Both the position numbers and the translations under genes were made by a program. Of a stretch of DNA of 64,000 nucleotides, positions 57,046 to 63,940 are shown piece by piece. The stretch comes from Naegleria gruberi. Its lineage: Eukaryota. The stretch lies in assembly GCA_000004985.1 (NCBI GenBank), contig GG738889.1, one strand, 5' to 3'. Position 1 is the stretch's first letter; each line of letters begins with the position of its first letter. The notes under the pieces were generated by a model that was not told where the DNA came from, did no database searches, and worked only from the letters and a program-made list of their open reading frames with translations.

Positions 57046-58029
57046 ATGTACTCACTCCAAAAAGCTTCCCGATGCTTATTATCCAACAGCAGACAATCCC
57101 ATCTTGCCACTAGATTTCCATCATCCTTTATTACTTCATCAAATCAAGTAATTTATAGAGGATTTTCACAAACACAATTCAAGAGAAGTGAAGAAAAGAA
57201 ACAAGAGGAATCAAGATCCGAAGAACAATCACAACAACAACAGGAAGAAAAAAAGAGTTACTTTAAGAGATTGTTCTCACCAGCCAATTTGATCTTGCCA
57301 GCCGTGTTCGGAATTGTTTTATATAATTTTGCATCATATGATGTTCGTCAAAAGAAACGTGAGGCTGAATTGGAGAGTAAGTTTTCATTCTGTGATGTTG
57401 ATGATAATAGTAATAATACAATAATTCAACAATGATAATGATAATAATATTAATAATGGAATTAATTGGAATAATTAGAACAAGCAAGTAGCAAGGCTGT
57501 TAAAGCTGTAGGAGCTCCAAAACTTGGAGGTGCTTTCACTCTTGTTAATACTAAAGGAGAAGTTGTTACAGATTCTGAATTTAGAGGAAAATTCATGTTC
57601 ATGTATTTTGGATTTACTAATTGTCCTGATGTTTGTCCAACTGAAATGAAAAAGATGACAAAAGCACTTCAAAAAATTGAAAAGGAAAATCCAGAGTTGG
57701 CAGACAAGATTGTTCCAGTGTTTGTTTCATGTGATCCACCTCGTGATTCATGCACAGCTGTCATTGAATATCTTCAAGATTATCACCCAAGATTTGTTGG
57801 ATTAACTGGTACTCCAGATCAAATCAGTAGAATTTGTAAGAAATATAGAGTTTATTACAATGCTCCTGATTACAAGGAAGGATCACAAGATTACTTGGTT
57901 GACCACAGCATTTTCATTTACTTGATGGATCCATATGGTCACTTGTCTGAATATTTTGCTCAAAATACTACTGCTGATAAGATTTACGAAAGTGTTAGTA
58001 CAGCCTTAAAATCATATAAATGGGAATAA
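57046..58029 (+). CDS. SCO1: SCO1/SenC cytochrome c oxidase copper chaperone with a mitochondrial presequence. Two exons.
   Basis: Exons 57046..57376 and 57479..58029 with a 102-bp intron 57377..57478 (gtaagt..attag). Has the 'GGAFTLVNTKGEVVTDSEFRGKFMFMYFGFTNCPDVCP' CxxxC copper site and a downstream His, 'DHSIFIYLMDPYG'. Confidence 0.85.
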
Positions 58030-58150: not shown

Positions 58151-58777
58151 ATGATAGAAGAGAAAGCTCAACCAATTTCCGAAGAATTATTGCACAGTAC
58201 CAGATGGCTACAATTAAAAACCCTCACCTACCAAGATGAATCTAAAACAATTAGAAAATGGGATTGTGTAGAGAGATCAACAAGAACAAGCGATATTGAT
58301 GGAGTTGATATTATTGCTACTCTTGATGCAATTCCCGAAAGTGATCAGGAAGAAGGTGGAAAATATGTTATCCTCATTTCACAATATCGTCCTCCAATGA
58401 GAAATTATTGTATTGAATTTCCAGCTGGTTTGAGTGATGCTGGTGAGACTGCCGAAGAAACTGCTAGAAGAGAAATGCTTGAGGAAACTGGACTAATGGT
58501 TGAAAAGGTTAATAGAGTTTCGCCAATATTGGGAATGGAAGTTGGGTTAACCAATGCTAATTGTAAAATAATTTATTGTCAAGTACAATCTATCAAAATT
58601 TCAGAAAGACCAAAGCAACAATTGGAAGATGATGAAAACATTACTATTCACTTTGTAAAATTATCAAATATTATGGAAAAATTGGAGGAATTTGCCAAGT
58701 TGGGATTTACTATTGATGCCAAGGTTTGGACTTTTGCTTTTGGAATTGAACAAGCCTCATTATTTACAAAACAGTAA
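58151..58777 (+). CDS. Nudix hydrolase (ADP-sugar/ADP-ribose pyrophosphatase-like, NUDT5/NUDT14 type).
   Basis: Nudix box 'GLSDAGETAEETARREMLEETGL' (Gx5Ex7REUxEExGU). Confidence 0.75.
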   Translation: MIEEKAQPISEELLHSTRWLQLKTLTYQDESKTIRKWDCVERSTRTSDIDGVDIIATLDAIPESDQEEGGKYVILISQYRPPMRNYCIEFPAGLSDAGETAEETARREMLEETGLMVEKVNRVSPILGMEVGLTNANCKIIYCQVQSIKISERPKQQLEDDENITIHFVKLSNIMEKLEEFAKLGFTIDAKVWTFAFGIEQASLFTKQ

Positions 58778-58787
58778 AATGGATTTA

Positions 58788-61700
58788 TTAATCTAGTAAG
58801 TCAACTTCAGTAAATTTAACTGAACTATTTGCATCCTCCAATTTTTGAAGTTTGAGTGGAGGAACCTTATTGTATGTAGCTGAAAGAGTTGGATGGACTT
58901 GTTCTTCTGTAGCTTCTGAAAGCTCAAGAGGGGTTTCTTCATATTTATGAACAACTACACTGTTCGATTTTACAAAAACTTGTCCACCACCATAGGTTAC
59001 CTCACCAGAAGTTGATGTAACTTTTTGAGTCTTTCTAGCTCCATACCAAATGCAGAAGAAAATTGATGCAAGAGTTACGCACAGACATAATGCAAACATT
59101 ACAGTGGAGAGCACAACACCTGCTACATATGTGAATGAATGATATACTGTTGTTACTGTTTCCATGATGAAAACATTTGTTAATTGTTTACATCTGCATA
59201 CAGCATATGTATCATTCATTGATAGCATTATGCAATCAACTGCAACCTCTGTTGAACCATCATCAAAATTGCCACAAGAATATCTTACTTCTTGTTCTAT
59301 ATAATCTAATGTAGTGTGAATAACTTCATGGATTGCAATAGATTTGTTGATAGGAATTTCATAAACCAAATATTGCGAATTAACTGGAATAGACAAATCA
59401 ATTAGTTTAAGGGAAACAATTGGTGAAACTAAGCTAGACATTTGATAGGTTTGTGAATCGACTTTTTGGGAGATTGTTAACTTTGTGTTCAAAGAAAATA
59501 CATCAATTGAACTTGAGAAAATATATACAAATGGTTTCTTGAAAAGTGTAGTAACCTGAGGACTGAAATCAAAGATGTAGTTTTCCATTTGAACAGATGC
59601 CTTACTAACATCATCATGAATTGAGGTAGGCATGTCAAATATTGTGTGTCTATTTACAGTCATCGAGTAGAATGACCCTGTCTTTTGTTGTTTCTTACTT
59701 CCCACAACAATATTTCGTCCAATTAAACAAGTGGACAATTTGAGAGCTGACAATAATCTACGAGAGTTGGTTGATTGATCTACAAAGTATTGTCTATTGA
59801 TGATATAACTATAAGCAGATTCTACACTACTGACAAGCAATGTTTCAATCTCTGGAGCTAATTTAAGATTTGGATCAGCCAAAGCATACTCAAGGAACAT
59901 ATTCAATGTGAAAAGCGATTCTGATATTGTTTTGGAATTGAGCAATTGGTAATTGATCAACAGAGAGTCAATTGAGAATGATAACAAGGAGAGATAGTAA
60001 TCATTTACGAATCCGTCAGTACTATTCGCAATGTAAATCATATCTCTGAGTACTATCATCTTGGTTCCTTGAATATCAGAAAAAGCTTGAATAGAATCTG
60101 AGCAATCAGATCCAATCCAACCATCTTCACATTTACAGACACCTGAAATGTCTCTTCCATGAATACACTCTATAGTTCTTTTTACTGGTTTGGATGATAC
60201 ACTGTACAGTTTCTTTAAAAGCTGTTGTAACAAGACAGAGTCAGTTCTTGAGGTTGTAGCTGATTGATAGAAGCTTGAACTAAATTCTCCCTTAGAGGTA
60301 AATTCAGAACTCTTCTCAGCCCATTCCTTAACAATTTTAGAGGCATCTGAAAAATCACTAATGACTGGCTTTGAAATGGTCAAATTTTGATAAGTAGTTA
60401 TTGAGGCACCAGTAACTGTTTGAATCACCTCAAAGTAACACGTTAAGGTAGAACCACTGAAAGGAGCTGGAAGCTTTGAAGAGTAAATGTCACCAAACTT
60501 GTAGAGCTCAATTTTTGATCCTGATCTATCATCAATGAATCCGTACTTGTAATCAATATTTGCTTCAATGTTCTTGCAGTTGGAACAGTAGAACTTGAAT
60601 TCTGTTTCTAGAGCTTGACCCTTGAGTGGTGAAATAGTACAATCACAAGGTTTTGGGGTTACAGCAATGGTGAATGAGTAACTTGATTGAGTTGAAAAAC
60701 CAGTCTTTTTGTCAAAAATAATGCATGTCACAACATTGGTTGAACCTTCTTCGAGCTGTTTGGTGTCAATAATAATTGTGATTGTCTTGTCAATTGTTGT
60801 GTTACTACAAGAGGTGTTTTGTAAAACAGCTCCATTCAGCAACCAGGTAGCATTCACAGAGGAAGATTCAGCATAAAGCAGGGCTTGAATTGACAAAAAT
60901 TGTCCAGGAAGTAAAATAGAGGAGGAAGGCTCGATATGAAGAATGTTCAATAGTGGAGGAACTTTACCAAAGAATACAGTGGTTGTCTTTTCAATTGATC
61001 GACCATCTAATTTTTCAACTCTCAGTTTAAGTTCTACAGAGGATGGGATAGTAGAGAACAATGAGCTTGACACTACAAATTCTGAAGCCTTTGTTGAGCC
61101 TGCATTGTTGAGCAAATTAACTAGTTCAGGACTTGTGTTATCCAAACAGGTCCAAGTCCATGTTTCAATTGAGCTATCATGCAATGACATTTCTGGGTCT
61201 AAATAATCAACTTCAATAGTGGTATGGTATTTGGTAGATTCACTTTGAATAATGCTAAGAATGAGGTCAGGTGACTTTGTTACAATATTAACGATAGTGG
61301 ATGCTTTCAATGATGGGTTGGAAGCATAAAAAGCTGACACCTCAAAAGTGTAATTTTGAGTCCCAAACTTGCTAACAGAAGGAATGAACAAGTTATTGTA
61401 AGAGTCTGAACTGAATGTTATGGCTGAGCCACTCAACTTGGTCCATTCCACTTGCAATACGTCACTATCACTTTGACATACAGAAGGTGTAATCACTTTC
61501 TTTACAGTGAGAGGGAATTGGTTTGTATACTTTACAATTGTCTCTCCCTTATTGCTTGTACTGAGTAGAGGAAGTGGTTTTACTGCTTTGGTGAATCTCT
61601 TGGAAGACACAGTGCTACTCACCAAATTTAACCACTTACTTTTAACATAGAGGGTCATAATGTAGTCACCAGCTGTAAGAGAAGAATCAAGTGTAAAGAT

Positions 61701-62714
61701 GGATTGTCCTTGTAATATTGAGACAGGATTCATGGTTGTAGCATCTAGAAGTGACCAATAATACAATAATTGCTTGCCATCTATGGAATAGCTCGAAGAG
61801 CCATCAATAGTGATTGTGTCGCAAGAACTATAGATATCTGTACTGGCCATTTGAATGATAGCTTTTGGTGGTGAAATATTTTGAGGTACATTCACAGTCA
61901 ATGGCATGTATTGTTGATGGATTTGCTCATTTTCAAAAGCAAGATCATTAATTTGAATTGTTGTCTCTCCTGGTTGAATATCATAATCAACAGAACCAAA
62001 AGATATCATAAAGAGTCCGCTAACCTTATCTAAATATTGGCACTTGATGTTTGTTATCGAGCCATACACATTCTTGCTAATGTCAGAGGGATGTAGTAAG
62101 GATGAGCATGGAACATCCTTTTCGATAAAGTCATAAGGTGAATGCAGATAAAAGGTTATACCCTTAAAATCTGACGATATCACTGCTGGTCCTACAACCC
62201 TTGATGAACACTTCTCACCATGATACTCTGATTGACATGAACTACATGAACGGCCTGTCCAAAATCCCTCCTTAATACTTGAGTGGCATTCACATTCTCC
62301 CTTAATATTGCACTCTCCATGACCAGTGCAATTAATAATTCTATCGCAAAAAGTTGGCGATATTTCCAATTGACAATTACTACCCTCATAACCACTCGAA
62401 CAAGAACAGTTATTCAATGAAATACATGCTCCTCTCCCTGAACAAACACTCGTATCATTTGCTCTCATTCCCTCACATGTAATACTGTCCTCACCTAGCT
62501 TATTCAATTTACATTCAATCCTAGAAGAATTTAATAACACTAGCAGCACAGCCATCAAAGTTAAAAATATTATCGAAAAACCTGTCGTACGAGACGATGA
62601 TGGCTTGGTGTTATGATTGATTAAGGCGGCGAAAATAGCCCTGCCGCGAATTGGCTGCGTCATTGTTGATGTGTTTTTTTGTGGTGGGAAAAGCTGTTGT
62701 TTATAATATCGCAC
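58788..62714 (-). CDS. Large single-pass membrane glycoprotein with N-terminal EGF-like Cys-rich modules, a long REJ-like extracellular region, a GPS-like motif and a C-terminal TM (sea-urchin REJ / PKD1-like architecture).
   Basis: 1308-aa intronless ORF. Signal/anchor 'FSIIFLTLMAVLLVLL'. EGF-like 'CSGRGACISLNNCSCSSGYEGSNCQ' and 'CTGHGECNIKGECEC'. GPS-like 'YSCGNFDDGSTEVAVDCIMLSMNDTYAVCRCKQLTNVF'. TM 'VAGVVLSTVMFALCLCVTLASIFFCIWY'. Confidence 0.55.
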   Translation of the reverse strand: MRYYKQQLFPPQKNTSTMTQPIRGRAIFAALINHNTKPSSSRTTGFSIIFLTLMAVLLVLLNSSRIECKLNKLGEDSITCEGMRANDTSVCSGRGACISLNNCSCSSGYEGSNCQLEISPTFCDRIINCTGHGECNIKGECECHSSIKEGFWTGRSCSSCQSEYHGEKCSSRVVGPAVISSDFKGITFYLHSPYDFIEKDVPCSSLLHPSDISKNVYGSITNIKCQYLDKVSGLFMISFGSVDYDIQPGETTIQINDLAFENEQIHQQYMPLTVNVPQNISPPKAIIQMASTDIYSSCDTITIDGSSSYSIDGKQLLYYWSLLDATTMNPVSILQGQSIFTLDSSLTAGDYIMTLYVKSKWLNLVSSTVSSKRFTKAVKPLPLLSTSNKGETIVKYTNQFPLTVKKVITPSVCQSDSDVLQVEWTKLSGSAITFSSDSYNNLFIPSVSKFGTQNYTFEVSAFYASNPSLKASTIVNIVTKSPDLILSIIQSESTKYHTTIEVDYLDPEMSLHDSSIETWTWTCLDNTSPELVNLLNNAGSTKASEFVVSSSLFSTIPSSVELKLRVEKLDGRSIEKTTTVFFGKVPPLLNILHIEPSSSILLPGQFLSIQALLYAESSSVNATWLLNGAVLQNTSCSNTTIDKTITIIIDTKQLEEGSTNVVTCIIFDKKTGFSTQSSYSFTIAVTPKPCDCTISPLKGQALETEFKFYCSNCKNIEANIDYKYGFIDDRSGSKIELYKFGDIYSSKLPAPFSGSTLTCYFEVIQTVTGASITTYQNLTISKPVISDFSDASKIVKEWAEKSSEFTSKGEFSSSFYQSATTSRTDSVLLQQLLKKLYSVSSKPVKRTIECIHGRDISGVCKCEDGWIGSDCSDSIQAFSDIQGTKMIVLRDMIYIANSTDGFVNDYYLSLLSFSIDSLLINYQLLNSKTISESLFTLNMFLEYALADPNLKLAPEIETLLVSSVESAYSYIINRQYFVDQSTNSRRLLSALKLSTCLIGRNIVVGSKKQQKTGSFYSMTVNRHTIFDMPTSIHDDVSKASVQMENYIFDFSPQVTTLFKKPFVYIFSSSIDVFSLNTKLTISQKVDSQTYQMSSLVSPIVSLKLIDLSIPVNSQYLVYEIPINKSIAIHEVIHTTLDYIEQEVRYSCGNFDDGSTEVAVDCIMLSMNDTYAVCRCKQLTNVFIMETVTTVYHSFTYVAGVVLSTVMFALCLCVTLASIFFCIWYGARKTQKVTSTSGEVTYGGGQVFVKSNSVVVHKYEETPLELSEATEEQVHPTLSATYNKVPPLKLQKLEDANSSVKFTEVDLLD

Positions 62715-62887
62715 TTCTTTCTCTTAAGCGAACTAGTCACAGCCAATGCTGATTCATTTTTGAAAATTGTAGGACATTTAAGGAAGATGATTCATTTAGA
62801 AATTTTGCCAATGAACCAGTGGCAATAAGGAAAAAACAGTCTTGCATTAAAACAAATATTAAAAAAAATAAAAATTGAAAGAAAAAA

Positions 62888-63940
62888 ATGCAGAGAATGG
62901 TGTGGAGAGGAGGAGCGATTGTTTTTGGAGGAATGTTGGGTTATTTCGGAAAGAATTATTTGAGAGATTTTAAAAAAGAGTTTTTAGAAAAGAAGATGCA
63001 AGTAGATCACTTGTTGTTTACTAGTAAATTGTTAAAGTTTAGGAAATTTTCTAATGGTGATCCGATGGTAGAAGATATTGATTGTAAATATTTGGAATTG
63101 ATTAGTGATTATTTGGTTTTTAATTTAAAATCATTACCTATGGATGATGGTAATTTGAAAAGAAATATTTCTAGTGGAACTTGTTTTGTGACAAGTCCAA
63201 TGAATGATCCATCTTGTGAATATATTTATTTGGTGACTGCTGCACACTGTGTTATAAATAAGGAGGGAAAGGCAAAGAAAGTTGGACTCATTCCAAAGAA
63301 TAAGGAAGGTTCCATATCAAATCAAAAACTAAAATCGAATAGTGGAGAGTTAATCGAGTGTCAAATAATTTGTTGTGAATATGATGGAGATAGAGATGTG
63401 GATTTTGCAATTATGAAATGTTCTAGGAAGGAATTTTTGGAAAAGAATGGGTTTACTGAGATACCTAGTCAATATTTTGTGCCTAAGATTGGTGAATTTA
63501 AAGAAAATGATGATAATTTGAATAATATAATAGTTGGATATCCTTCAAAGTATAAAGAATATAGAGATAAGCGAGTACTAGATTATACTTTTGAAAAATT
63601 GAATGGGTTAATGATGACATATCAAAAGAGACCAGTATTTTCTTTTGGAAGATATTTAAGAACGGAAAAGAGTAACTCAGAGAAGGCAGATATCACTATT
63701 TTTACGAACACCATCAATAAGGGATTCAGTGGCGGTCCTTCCATTGAATGGAGAGGTAATACATCTCAAAATGATACACTCCCTAAATTTCATGGTATTG
63801 TGGCATTGTTTGATGATGCTGGATATGGATCTTTTAATGTTTCGAATGAAGAATTTAGGCAGGCTTACTTTTCACATATTGAAATTCCTTCAACAACTGG
63901 TCTAGATATAAAGAAAGCCATCGAGGAATATAGAAAATAA
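62888..63940 (+). CDS. Trypsin-like serine peptidase (S1 family, Trypsin_2/DegP-core-like, no PDZ) with an N-terminal hydrophobic segment.
   Basis: Catalytic His 'LVTAAHCV', Asp in 'DVDFAIMKC' and Ser in 'GFSGGPSIEW' (GDSGGP-like), in the canonical order. 350-aa intronless ORF. Confidence 0.7.
   Translation: MQRMVWRGGAIVFGGMLGYFGKNYLRDFKKEFLEKKMQVDHLLFTSKLLKFRKFSNGDPMVEDIDCKYLELISDYLVFNLKSLPMDDGNLKRNISSGTCFVTSPMNDPSCEYIYLVTAAHCVINKEGKAKKVGLIPKNKEGSISNQKLKSNSGELIECQIICCEYDGDRDVDFAIMKCSRKEFLEKNGFTEIPSQYFVPKIGEFKENDDNLNNIIVGYPSKYKEYRDKRVLDYTFEKLNGLMMTYQKRPVFSFGRYLRTEKSNSEKADITIFTNTINKGFSGGPSIEWRGNTSQNDTLPKFHGIVALFDDAGYGSFNVSNEEFRQAYFSHIEIPSTTGLDIKKAIEEYRK

Follow-up and report, generated by a model that had tools for sequence, protein, structure and literature searches.

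A probable single-pass REJ-GAIN surface protein in Naegleria gruberi with a GPS motif that lacks the canonical histidine

The Naegleria gruberi contig GG738889.1 (assembly GCA_000004985.1) carries, within the 64,000-nucleotide stretch examined here (the window), a long minus-strand gene, NAEGRDRAFT_71231, whose product we interpret as a probable surface protein with a REJ domain, a GAIN domain and a single transmembrane segment. In a six-frame list of open reading frames (ORFs) it appears as a frame of 1308 codons (58788..62714, minus strand) with GTG at its mechanical start. The first ATG is residue 18 of the ORF, at nucleotide 62663, and was taken as the start because the host is a eukaryote. 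Translation from this residue is 100% identical, over all 1291 residues, to XP_002673696.1 (EFC40952.1, UniProt D2VQH8), a N. gruberi "predicted protein", which identifies the window as nuclear DNA of this species, and the deposited gene model agrees with a single exon. A previous sequence-only reading of this DNA had described an intronless ORF of 1308 amino acids; the frame and the single exon are borne out, and the start is corrected to the ATG at 62663, giving 1291 amino acids. The DNA averages approximately 33% G+C, and an open frame of 3.9 kb in such DNA is not due to chance; a pseudogene or chance ORF was discarded. Residue numbers below are those of the ORF, and those of the deposited protein are obtained by subtracting 17. 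From the N to the C terminus the protein consists of a signal peptide or anchor, EGF modules, a PKD/Ig-like region, REJ, a further EGF module, GAIN, the transmembrane segment and a tail, located as follows.

58788..62663, minus strand: coding sequence of NAEGRDRAFT_71231 (1291 amino acids and stop), from identity to XP_002673696.1 starting at the first ATG
62526..62588, minus strand: N-terminal hydrophobic segment, residues 43-63, GFSIIFLTLMAVLLVLL (Kyte-Doolittle hydropathy, 19-residue windows, up to 2.4)
62205..62459, minus strand: N-terminal EGF-like modules, residues 86-170 (Pfam EGF_Teneurin and EGF_2)
61635..61850, minus strand: possible weak PKD/Ig-like beta domain, residues 289-360 (Pfam K319L-like_PKD)
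60282..61370, minus strand: REJ domain, residues 449-811 (Pfam PF02010)
60096..60170, minus strand: EGF-like module between REJ and GAIN, residues 849-873 (sub-threshold Pfam EGF_PEAR1L and EGF_TEN)
59718..60098, minus strand: predicted GAIN subdomain A, residues 873-999, five long helices and a short helical turn
59166..59276, minus strand: GPS motif, residues 1147-1183 (alignment with the canonical CxCxHLTxF motifs of 30 relatives)
59178..59186, minus strand: Q1177-L1178-T1179, at the position of the H-L-(T/S) autoproteolysis triad (alignment)
59034..59132, minus strand: single transmembrane segment, residues ~1195-1227 (hydropathy up to 2.5)
58791..59033, minus strand: cytoplasmic tail, residues 1228-1308, 81 amino acids, with no recognized domain

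The REJ domain is the clearest module of the ectodomain. Its Pfam PF02010 match scores 61.1 bits (gathering score 25; E=1e-16) and extends over positions 49-443 of the 452-position profile; a REJ match above the curated threshold is among the features of the PKD1/REJ family. The N-terminal EGF modules also exceed their curated thresholds, with 31.1 bits for EGF_Teneurin (cutoff 24.3) and 26.6 bits for EGF_2 (cutoff 22.1), both within residues 86-170. The match to K319L-like_PKD (E=4e-4, 20.7 bits, under the cutoff of 27) is only suggestive of a PKD/Ig-like domain. The second EGF module, between REJ and GAIN, is not mentioned in the sequence-only reading, and the order REJ-EGF-GAIN recurs in the relatives P0002, P0009 and P0028. 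The ectodomain contains 13 N-x-S/T sequons. Hydropathy reveals only two hydrophobic segments in the entire protein, residues 43-63, a predicted signal peptide or signal anchor, and residues ~1195-1227, which begin 16 residues past T1179. Even at E<=10 there was no Pfam match to PLAT, 7tm or PKD_channel anywhere in the protein, and Pfam identified no signaling domain. Only 81 residues follow the transmembrane segment, with no PLAT/LH2 domain among them; hydropathy gives one C-terminal transmembrane segment rather than 11 with a C-terminal TRP-like channel region, and the seven-transmembrane (7TM) region that follows GAIN in adhesion GPCRs is absent, with no 7tm_2 match. The sequence-only reading had anticipated EGF cysteine modules at the N terminus, a REJ-like region and one transmembrane segment with a short cytoplasmic tail, all of which are confirmed. 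It had also described more than 900 amino acids of beta-rich extracellular sequence, and here the length stands but the uniformly beta-rich character does not, with GAIN half helical.

Residues 872-1192, approximately 320 amino acids, are predicted to form a GAIN domain. The prediction rests on an AlphaFold2 (AF2) model of this segment built from 35 aligned sequences, with a mean predicted local distance difference test score (pLDDT) of 84.5, a predicted template modeling score (pTM) of 0.82 and no segment below 50. In the model, five long helices and a short helical turn precede 13 strands and two small helices, which is to say a helical subdomain A and a 13-stranded subdomain B that contains the GPS. 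The GAIN domain has been described as six helices and a twisted sandwich of 13 strands with two small helices (PMC3321182). When the model was searched with Foldseek, nine GAIN entries were returned with E=1.3e-12 to 1e-5 and probability 1.00, and the next match was at 8e-4; GAIN is thus the sole strong fold match, in agreement with the fold that the sequence-only reading had proposed as a check. The K-Q-L-T loop (residues 1176-1179) of the model connects its final two strands (1170-1175 and 1180-1191), which is where the scissile bond is located in solved GAIN domains (PMC3321182). An earlier AF2 model from eight sequences was poor (pLDDT 52), and still placed the BAI3 GAIN domain fourth of 48,164 structures.

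Profile comparisons point in the same direction. A profile of the C-terminal domain from eight family members, searched against PDB sequences, gave top matches solely to the GAIN/GPS regions of adhesion GPCRs, namely ADGRL3 (5.4e-6), ADGRF1 (3.3e-5), ADGRD1 (5.8e-4), CELSR1 (2e-3) and latrophilin-1 (4DLQ, 5e-3). Because this signal could stem from the canonical members alone, profiles were rebuilt without the N. gruberi protein. These match its residues ~900-1185 in the same register, with 26.9 bits for a profile of seven relatives and 20.8 bits for one of 31 relatives that excludes the subfamily sharing the TNVF strand. A phmmer search of the whole protein against PDB sequences gave only EGF-level noise (E ~1).

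Near the membrane, cysteines 1147, 1161, 1173 and 1175 are placed at GPS spacing and are followed by K-Q-L-T-N-V-F-I. The GPS-like cysteine pattern claimed by the sequence-only reading is therefore present, and the motif that it quoted, ..CIMLSMNDTYAVCRCKQLTNVF, sits at residues 1161-1182. In the 35-sequence alignment, the four cysteines, the leucine and the threonine share columns with the C..W..C..CxCxHLTxF pattern of the canonical relatives; both conserved GPS tryptophans are missing and the histidine is replaced by glutamine. Pfam GPS was matched in three of the eight aligned family members (best E=3e-8). Whether the cleavage triad is retained had been left open, and the alignment answers it: the protein has Q-L-T in place of H-L-(T/S), and the catalytic histidine is absent.

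Close relatives were not simple to find. In the initial homology search, EGF words filled the list of 8000 candidates, and only distant relatives were recovered, comprising N. gruberi paralogues of approximately 25% identity and proteins from Percolomonas, JGI and Logan. Word-indexed searches gave no match, self included, for the C-terminal 383 amino acids alone, and only the self match for residues 175-1195. The three closest paralogues surfaced only when the C-terminal domain of the eight family members was used in an exhaustive profile search, which yielded 114 proteins at E<=1e-3. These paralogues, P0024 (XP_002668922), P0026 (XP_002673629) and P0027 (XP_002670695), share 38-42% identity with the protein along almost the entire length. 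Two of them, P0024 and P0027, also have REJ matches above the Pfam threshold, and the P0026 gene lies on the same 348-kb scaffold, outside the window. Their GPS regions are CRCSKLTNVFIIET, CTCVSFTNVFVVET and CRCKRFTNVFVIQT, respectively, aligned with CRCKQLTNVFIMET in the protein described here. The corresponding motifs are CRCSKLTNVF, CTCVSFTNVF and CRCKRFTNVF, giving triads of K-L-T, S-F-T and R-F-T beside Q-L-T. Consequently the threonine at +1 and the TNVF strand are kept in all four proteins, the -1 position is leucine or phenylalanine, and the -2 position is glutamine, lysine, serine or arginine. Residues identical in all four account for 30-42% of positions over residues 738-937, a peak running from the last part of REJ through the EGF module into GAIN subdomain A, and for 0-2% in the tail. 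Near the C terminus (58791-58820, minus strand), three of the four paralogues share D-L-(L/V)-D, as EVDLLD, QDLVD and IDLLD, which is the sole recurring element of otherwise unconserved tails; a role as an acidic di-leucine sorting signal is pure speculation.

Other matches of the profile search have canonical H-L-T or H-T-T sites followed by one or by 7-11 transmembrane segments. P0028 (JGI, 1554 amino acids) combines REJ (5e-50), EGF and GPS (5e-10) with at least eight transmembrane segments; P0039 (Logan, 1619 amino acids) has REJ (1.3e-23), GPS (7.5e-11) and seven; and P0018 from Percolomonas cosmopolitus (2118 amino acids) has RCC1, EGF, REJ (1.5e-29), a GPS-like VCVTSHTTDF and at least seven. 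None of the three showed a PLAT or PKD_channel match at the thresholds used. They are PKD1-like multi-pass architectures that carry the same ectodomain cassette. Given relatives with one or with 7-11 transmembrane segments, the REJ-(EGF)-GAIN cassette is widely distributed among Heterolobosea, where it is mounted on single-pass as well as multi-pass anchors.

A separate observation concerns NAEGRDRAFT_49308 (P0130, 2167 amino acids), another N. gruberi protein, of which P0013 is a near-identical copy in ENA. It contains NHL repeats, many EGF modules, a GAIN-like region, one transmembrane segment and a C-terminal kinase (Pkinase, 6.9e-30), and its motif ECQVSHLSLF has the canonical H-L-S. A leave-one-out profile matches its residues 1498-1791 with 19.9 bits, Pfam GPS gives no match at a threshold of E<=1e-3, and the protein lacks one of the GPS cysteine pairs. 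It could be a GAIN-domain receptor kinase, and we know of no earlier description of that combination.

Taken as a whole, we have good confidence that NAEGRDRAFT_71231 is best explained as a single-pass REJ-GAIN surface glycoprotein with a likely non-cleaving GAIN domain, and that it most likely acts through its ectodomain. Several observations weigh against this interpretation. Pfam GPS (PF01825), when the C-terminal segment was scanned alone, remains sub-threshold, with 13.2 bits against 22.5 and E=0.13; the match falls at the right position, residues 1161-1180. Once the P0002/P0098 pair is also left out, the query-free profile scores only 10.8 bits on the protein, and the leave-out profiles have a high compositional bias and are silent under default HMMER filters, needing --max; taken directly, the sequence signal is thus weak and shows compositional bias. 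A phmmer search with the C-terminal 497 residues against the 18 first-round homologues returned only self and EGF noise. The fold call comes from a predicted model whose alignment included canonical GAIN sequences. In addition, 27 residues form an n-region ahead of the N-terminal hydrophobic segment, and therefore a two-anchor topology is possible; and a literature search returned no paper linking Naegleria with REJ, GAIN or polycystin-1, or naming the gene. For cleavage, the threonine at +1 and the hydrophobic residue at -1 are strictly kept, and BAI3, with arginine at -2, is reported to be cleaved. The sub-threshold GPS score, the phmmer result and the poor first AF2 model could each be accommodated if the cysteine pattern were a degenerate EGF or other cysteine module after an unrelated helical linker, and not a GPS within GAIN. 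We regard this as very improbable. Residues 1147-1183 give no Pfam EGF match even at E<=10, and the four cysteines are at GPS spacing whereas EGF has six. The confident model has GAIN as its only strong fold match, the poor model had already ranked BAI3 GAIN near the top, and the family profiles match nothing but GAIN regions in PDB. An EGF-type account of the pattern is effectively refuted by the spacing, the model and the missing EGF match.

Whether the predicted GAIN domain cleaves itself is less clear-cut. In latrophilin-1 (CL1), H836S, L837A and T838G each impair autoproteolysis; the histidine is the proposed general base and the threonine the nucleophile, T838A and T838P misfold, and the leucine occupies a hydrophobic pocket (PMC3321182). 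Since the -2 position varies among glutamine, lysine, serine and arginine in the four paralogues, and H836S blocks latrophilin cleavage, efficient autoproteolysis has most likely been lost. We consider it fairly probable that the catalytic base is gone, that the remaining conservation is structural and that GAIN serves as an uncleaved, rigid, membrane-proximal stalk. The competing possibility, which we rate as unlikely but deserving real weight, is that the domain is still autoproteolytic and cuts between L1178 and T1179 with a base other than histidine. This would yield an extracellular fragment of approximately 1100 residues held non-covalently on a transmembrane stub of approximately 130 residues, and force or ligand could shed the ectodomain, exposing the TNVFIMETV strand. 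Such a reading would account for the invariant or conservatively replaced threonine, Leu/Phe and N-V-F strand of the four paralogues, for retention of both disulfide-forming cysteine pairs and for a predicted turn that is placed, like that of cleaving GAIN domains, between the two final strands; moreover, BAI3 has arginine in place of histidine, and in brain the endogenous BAI proteins undergo cleavage (PMC3321182). However, an unconstrained -2 residue is unexpected for a catalytic base, the serine substitution impairs cleavage in latrophilin, and two conserved GPS tryptophans are absent. Furthermore, because threonine and leucine are also structural, as the unfolding of T838A/P and the leucine pocket indicate, their conservation is no proof of catalysis. 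A third proposal would accommodate either cleavage state: the protein could bind ligand, or act as the sensor, as one subunit of a complex that also contains a separate TRPP/PKD2-like channel or a different membrane protein, much as PKD1 pairs with PKD2 and as SpREJ1 is proposed to trigger ion fluxes. PKD1-family proteins generally work with smaller partners, and SpREJ1, with one transmembrane segment, triggers sperm Ca2+ entry (PMC1934368); the unconserved tail, the lack of a signaling domain and the 7-11 transmembrane segments of P0018, P0028 and P0039, which share the cassette, would all suit this arrangement. However, the tail contains no coiled coil or known PKD1-PKD2 interaction element, and we view the proposal as decidedly unlikely.

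On the preferred interpretation, NAEGRDRAFT_71231 is a large, probably N-glycosylated surface protein that carries the REJ-GAIN cassette of the PKD1/REJ superfamily on one transmembrane segment. The last GAIN strand leads, 16 residues on, into the transmembrane helix and the 81-residue unconserved tail, and an uncleaved GAIN would act as a stalk that presents the EGF/REJ region away from the membrane. Since the ectodomain is conserved and the tail is not, the protein most likely acts by extracellular binding and not through a signaling domain of its own; it could adhere to a substrate, to prey or to other cells, or capture a ligand, and a partner protein in the membrane may take part. Lacking a signaling domain and having an unconserved tail, it would need a partner for any signaling. 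The word "receptor", used in the sequence-only reading, applies to this protein only conditionally, its cytoplasmic tail being unconserved among the paralogues.

Ordinary eukaryotic genes surround NAEGRDRAFT_71231, with very tight spacing on either side of it. A nearby SCO1/SenC gene (57046-58029, plus strand) is represented by one ORF at 57046-57435 and another at 57595-58029; in the latter, the Pfam profile begins at position 24, and an intron of approximately 160 bp probably separates the two. A NUDIX hydrolase gene (58151-58777, plus strand) is convergent, its stop codon lying 10 bp from that of the REJ-GAIN gene (58777-58788). On the other side, a trypsin-like peptidase gene (62888-63940, plus strand) is divergent; the distance from ATG to ATG is approximately 225 bp (62663-62888), which suggests a divergent promoter region. 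Farther neighbors include GH38 mannosidase, insulinase-type, PI3K, ZNFX1-type helicase, BTB and ankyrin-repeat genes. No functional link to the neighboring genes was seen in the window, and none is expected at a eukaryotic locus.

A Naegleria "predicted protein" whose GAIN domain lies below the Pfam GPS threshold now has an identity at the level of domains, and the polycystin/REJ ectodomain cassette, REJ then GAIN, is seen to occur in Heterolobosea on single-pass and multi-pass anchors. This lends support to the view, already published, that GAIN predates animals, and current understanding of the REJ/GAIN family is unchanged by the finding. GAIN domains that naturally lack the histidine offer cases in which to examine how the domain works when its canonical catalytic base is missing. 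More tentatively, and with the odds against it, the protein and its three paralogues may constitute a discoban subfamily of histidine-less GAIN domains on a single transmembrane segment, in which the Leu/Phe-Thr turn and the TNVF strand are kept. If so, whether they cleave with another base or stand as uncleaved force-bearing stalks, REJ-EGF-GAIN would be an ancient eukaryotic surface module. It would predate the 11-transmembrane polycystin and 7TM adhesion-GPCR architectures, and would have been re-used on varied anchors, among them the heterolobosean multi-pass PKD1-like proteins and perhaps the N. gruberi receptor kinase candidate NAEGRDRAFT_49308.

Among known systems, the PKD1/REJ family is defined by REJ, GPS, PLAT/LH2 and 1-11 transmembrane segments (PMC1934368). 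Within it, SpREJ1 (suREJ1), SpREJ8 and SpREJ9 resemble the Naegleria protein in having a glycosylated ectodomain, EGF, REJ, a GPS before a single transmembrane segment and a short tail, and five of the 10 SpREJ proteins are likewise without PLAT (PMC1934368). SpREJ1, composed of EGF, C-type lectins, REJ, GPS and one transmembrane segment (PMC1934368), is the closest architectural match, which does not imply direct orthology. Unlike SpREJ1, the Naegleria protein has no C-type lectin domain detected by Pfam, an extra EGF module between REJ and GAIN, a Q-L-T triad, and a discoban protist host with no context of gamete recognition. The sperm REJ/PKD1-family architecture proposed by the sequence-only reading is thus supported, with a significant REJ match, a sub-threshold Pfam GPS match at the expected place and a single transmembrane segment; its REJ/PKD1-type receptor holds in the SpREJ1-like sense and not in that of PKD1 proper, with its PLAT domain and multi-pass channel. 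Because the host is a free-living amoeboflagellate, the accompanying idea of sperm or gamete expression does not apply. Members of the PKD1 family (hPKD1, PKDREJ and PKD1L1-3) also have REJ followed by GAIN directly before the first transmembrane segment (PMC4810088), and may share the upstream PKD/Ig-like repeats. In contrast to PKD1 proper, however, the Naegleria protein has one transmembrane segment and not 11, no PLAT/LH2, no TRP-like channel and no coiled coil, and glutamine replaces the histidine of H-L-T; a PKD1 orthologue was rejected on the basis of the missing PLAT domain and channel region and the single transmembrane segment.

The GAIN domains of adhesion GPCRs that were compared (BAI3 4DLO, latrophilin-1 4DLQ, GPR110, CELSR1, ADGRL3, GPR126 and CD97) have the two-subdomain fold of the model, with as many helices and as many strands, and likewise carry four GPS cysteines and a Leu-Thr turn that sits approximately 16 residues before the membrane; the sequence identity is only 11-13%. 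BAI3 also has no histidine in the triad. The Naegleria protein differs from adhesion GPCRs in having no 7TM region, no HormR domain and neither of the two conserved tryptophans; a true adhesion GPCR was rejected given the single transmembrane segment and the missing 7tm_2 match, and with no 7TM region a tethered-agonist mechanism has no obvious target. Protist GAIN proteins have already been reported from Dictyostelium and Tetrahymena (Arac et al. 2012, PMC3321182). Of the heterolobosean proteins, P0028 has the identical order of REJ, EGF and GAIN, whereas P0018, P0028 and P0039 all differ in having a canonical H-(L/T)-(T/S) site and at least seven transmembrane segments, against one segment and no histidine in the subfamily described here. 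The fusion of GAIN with 7TM has been placed in stem holozoans (PMC12716839), and heterolobosean GAIN domains on non-7TM anchors fit that picture and do not overturn it.

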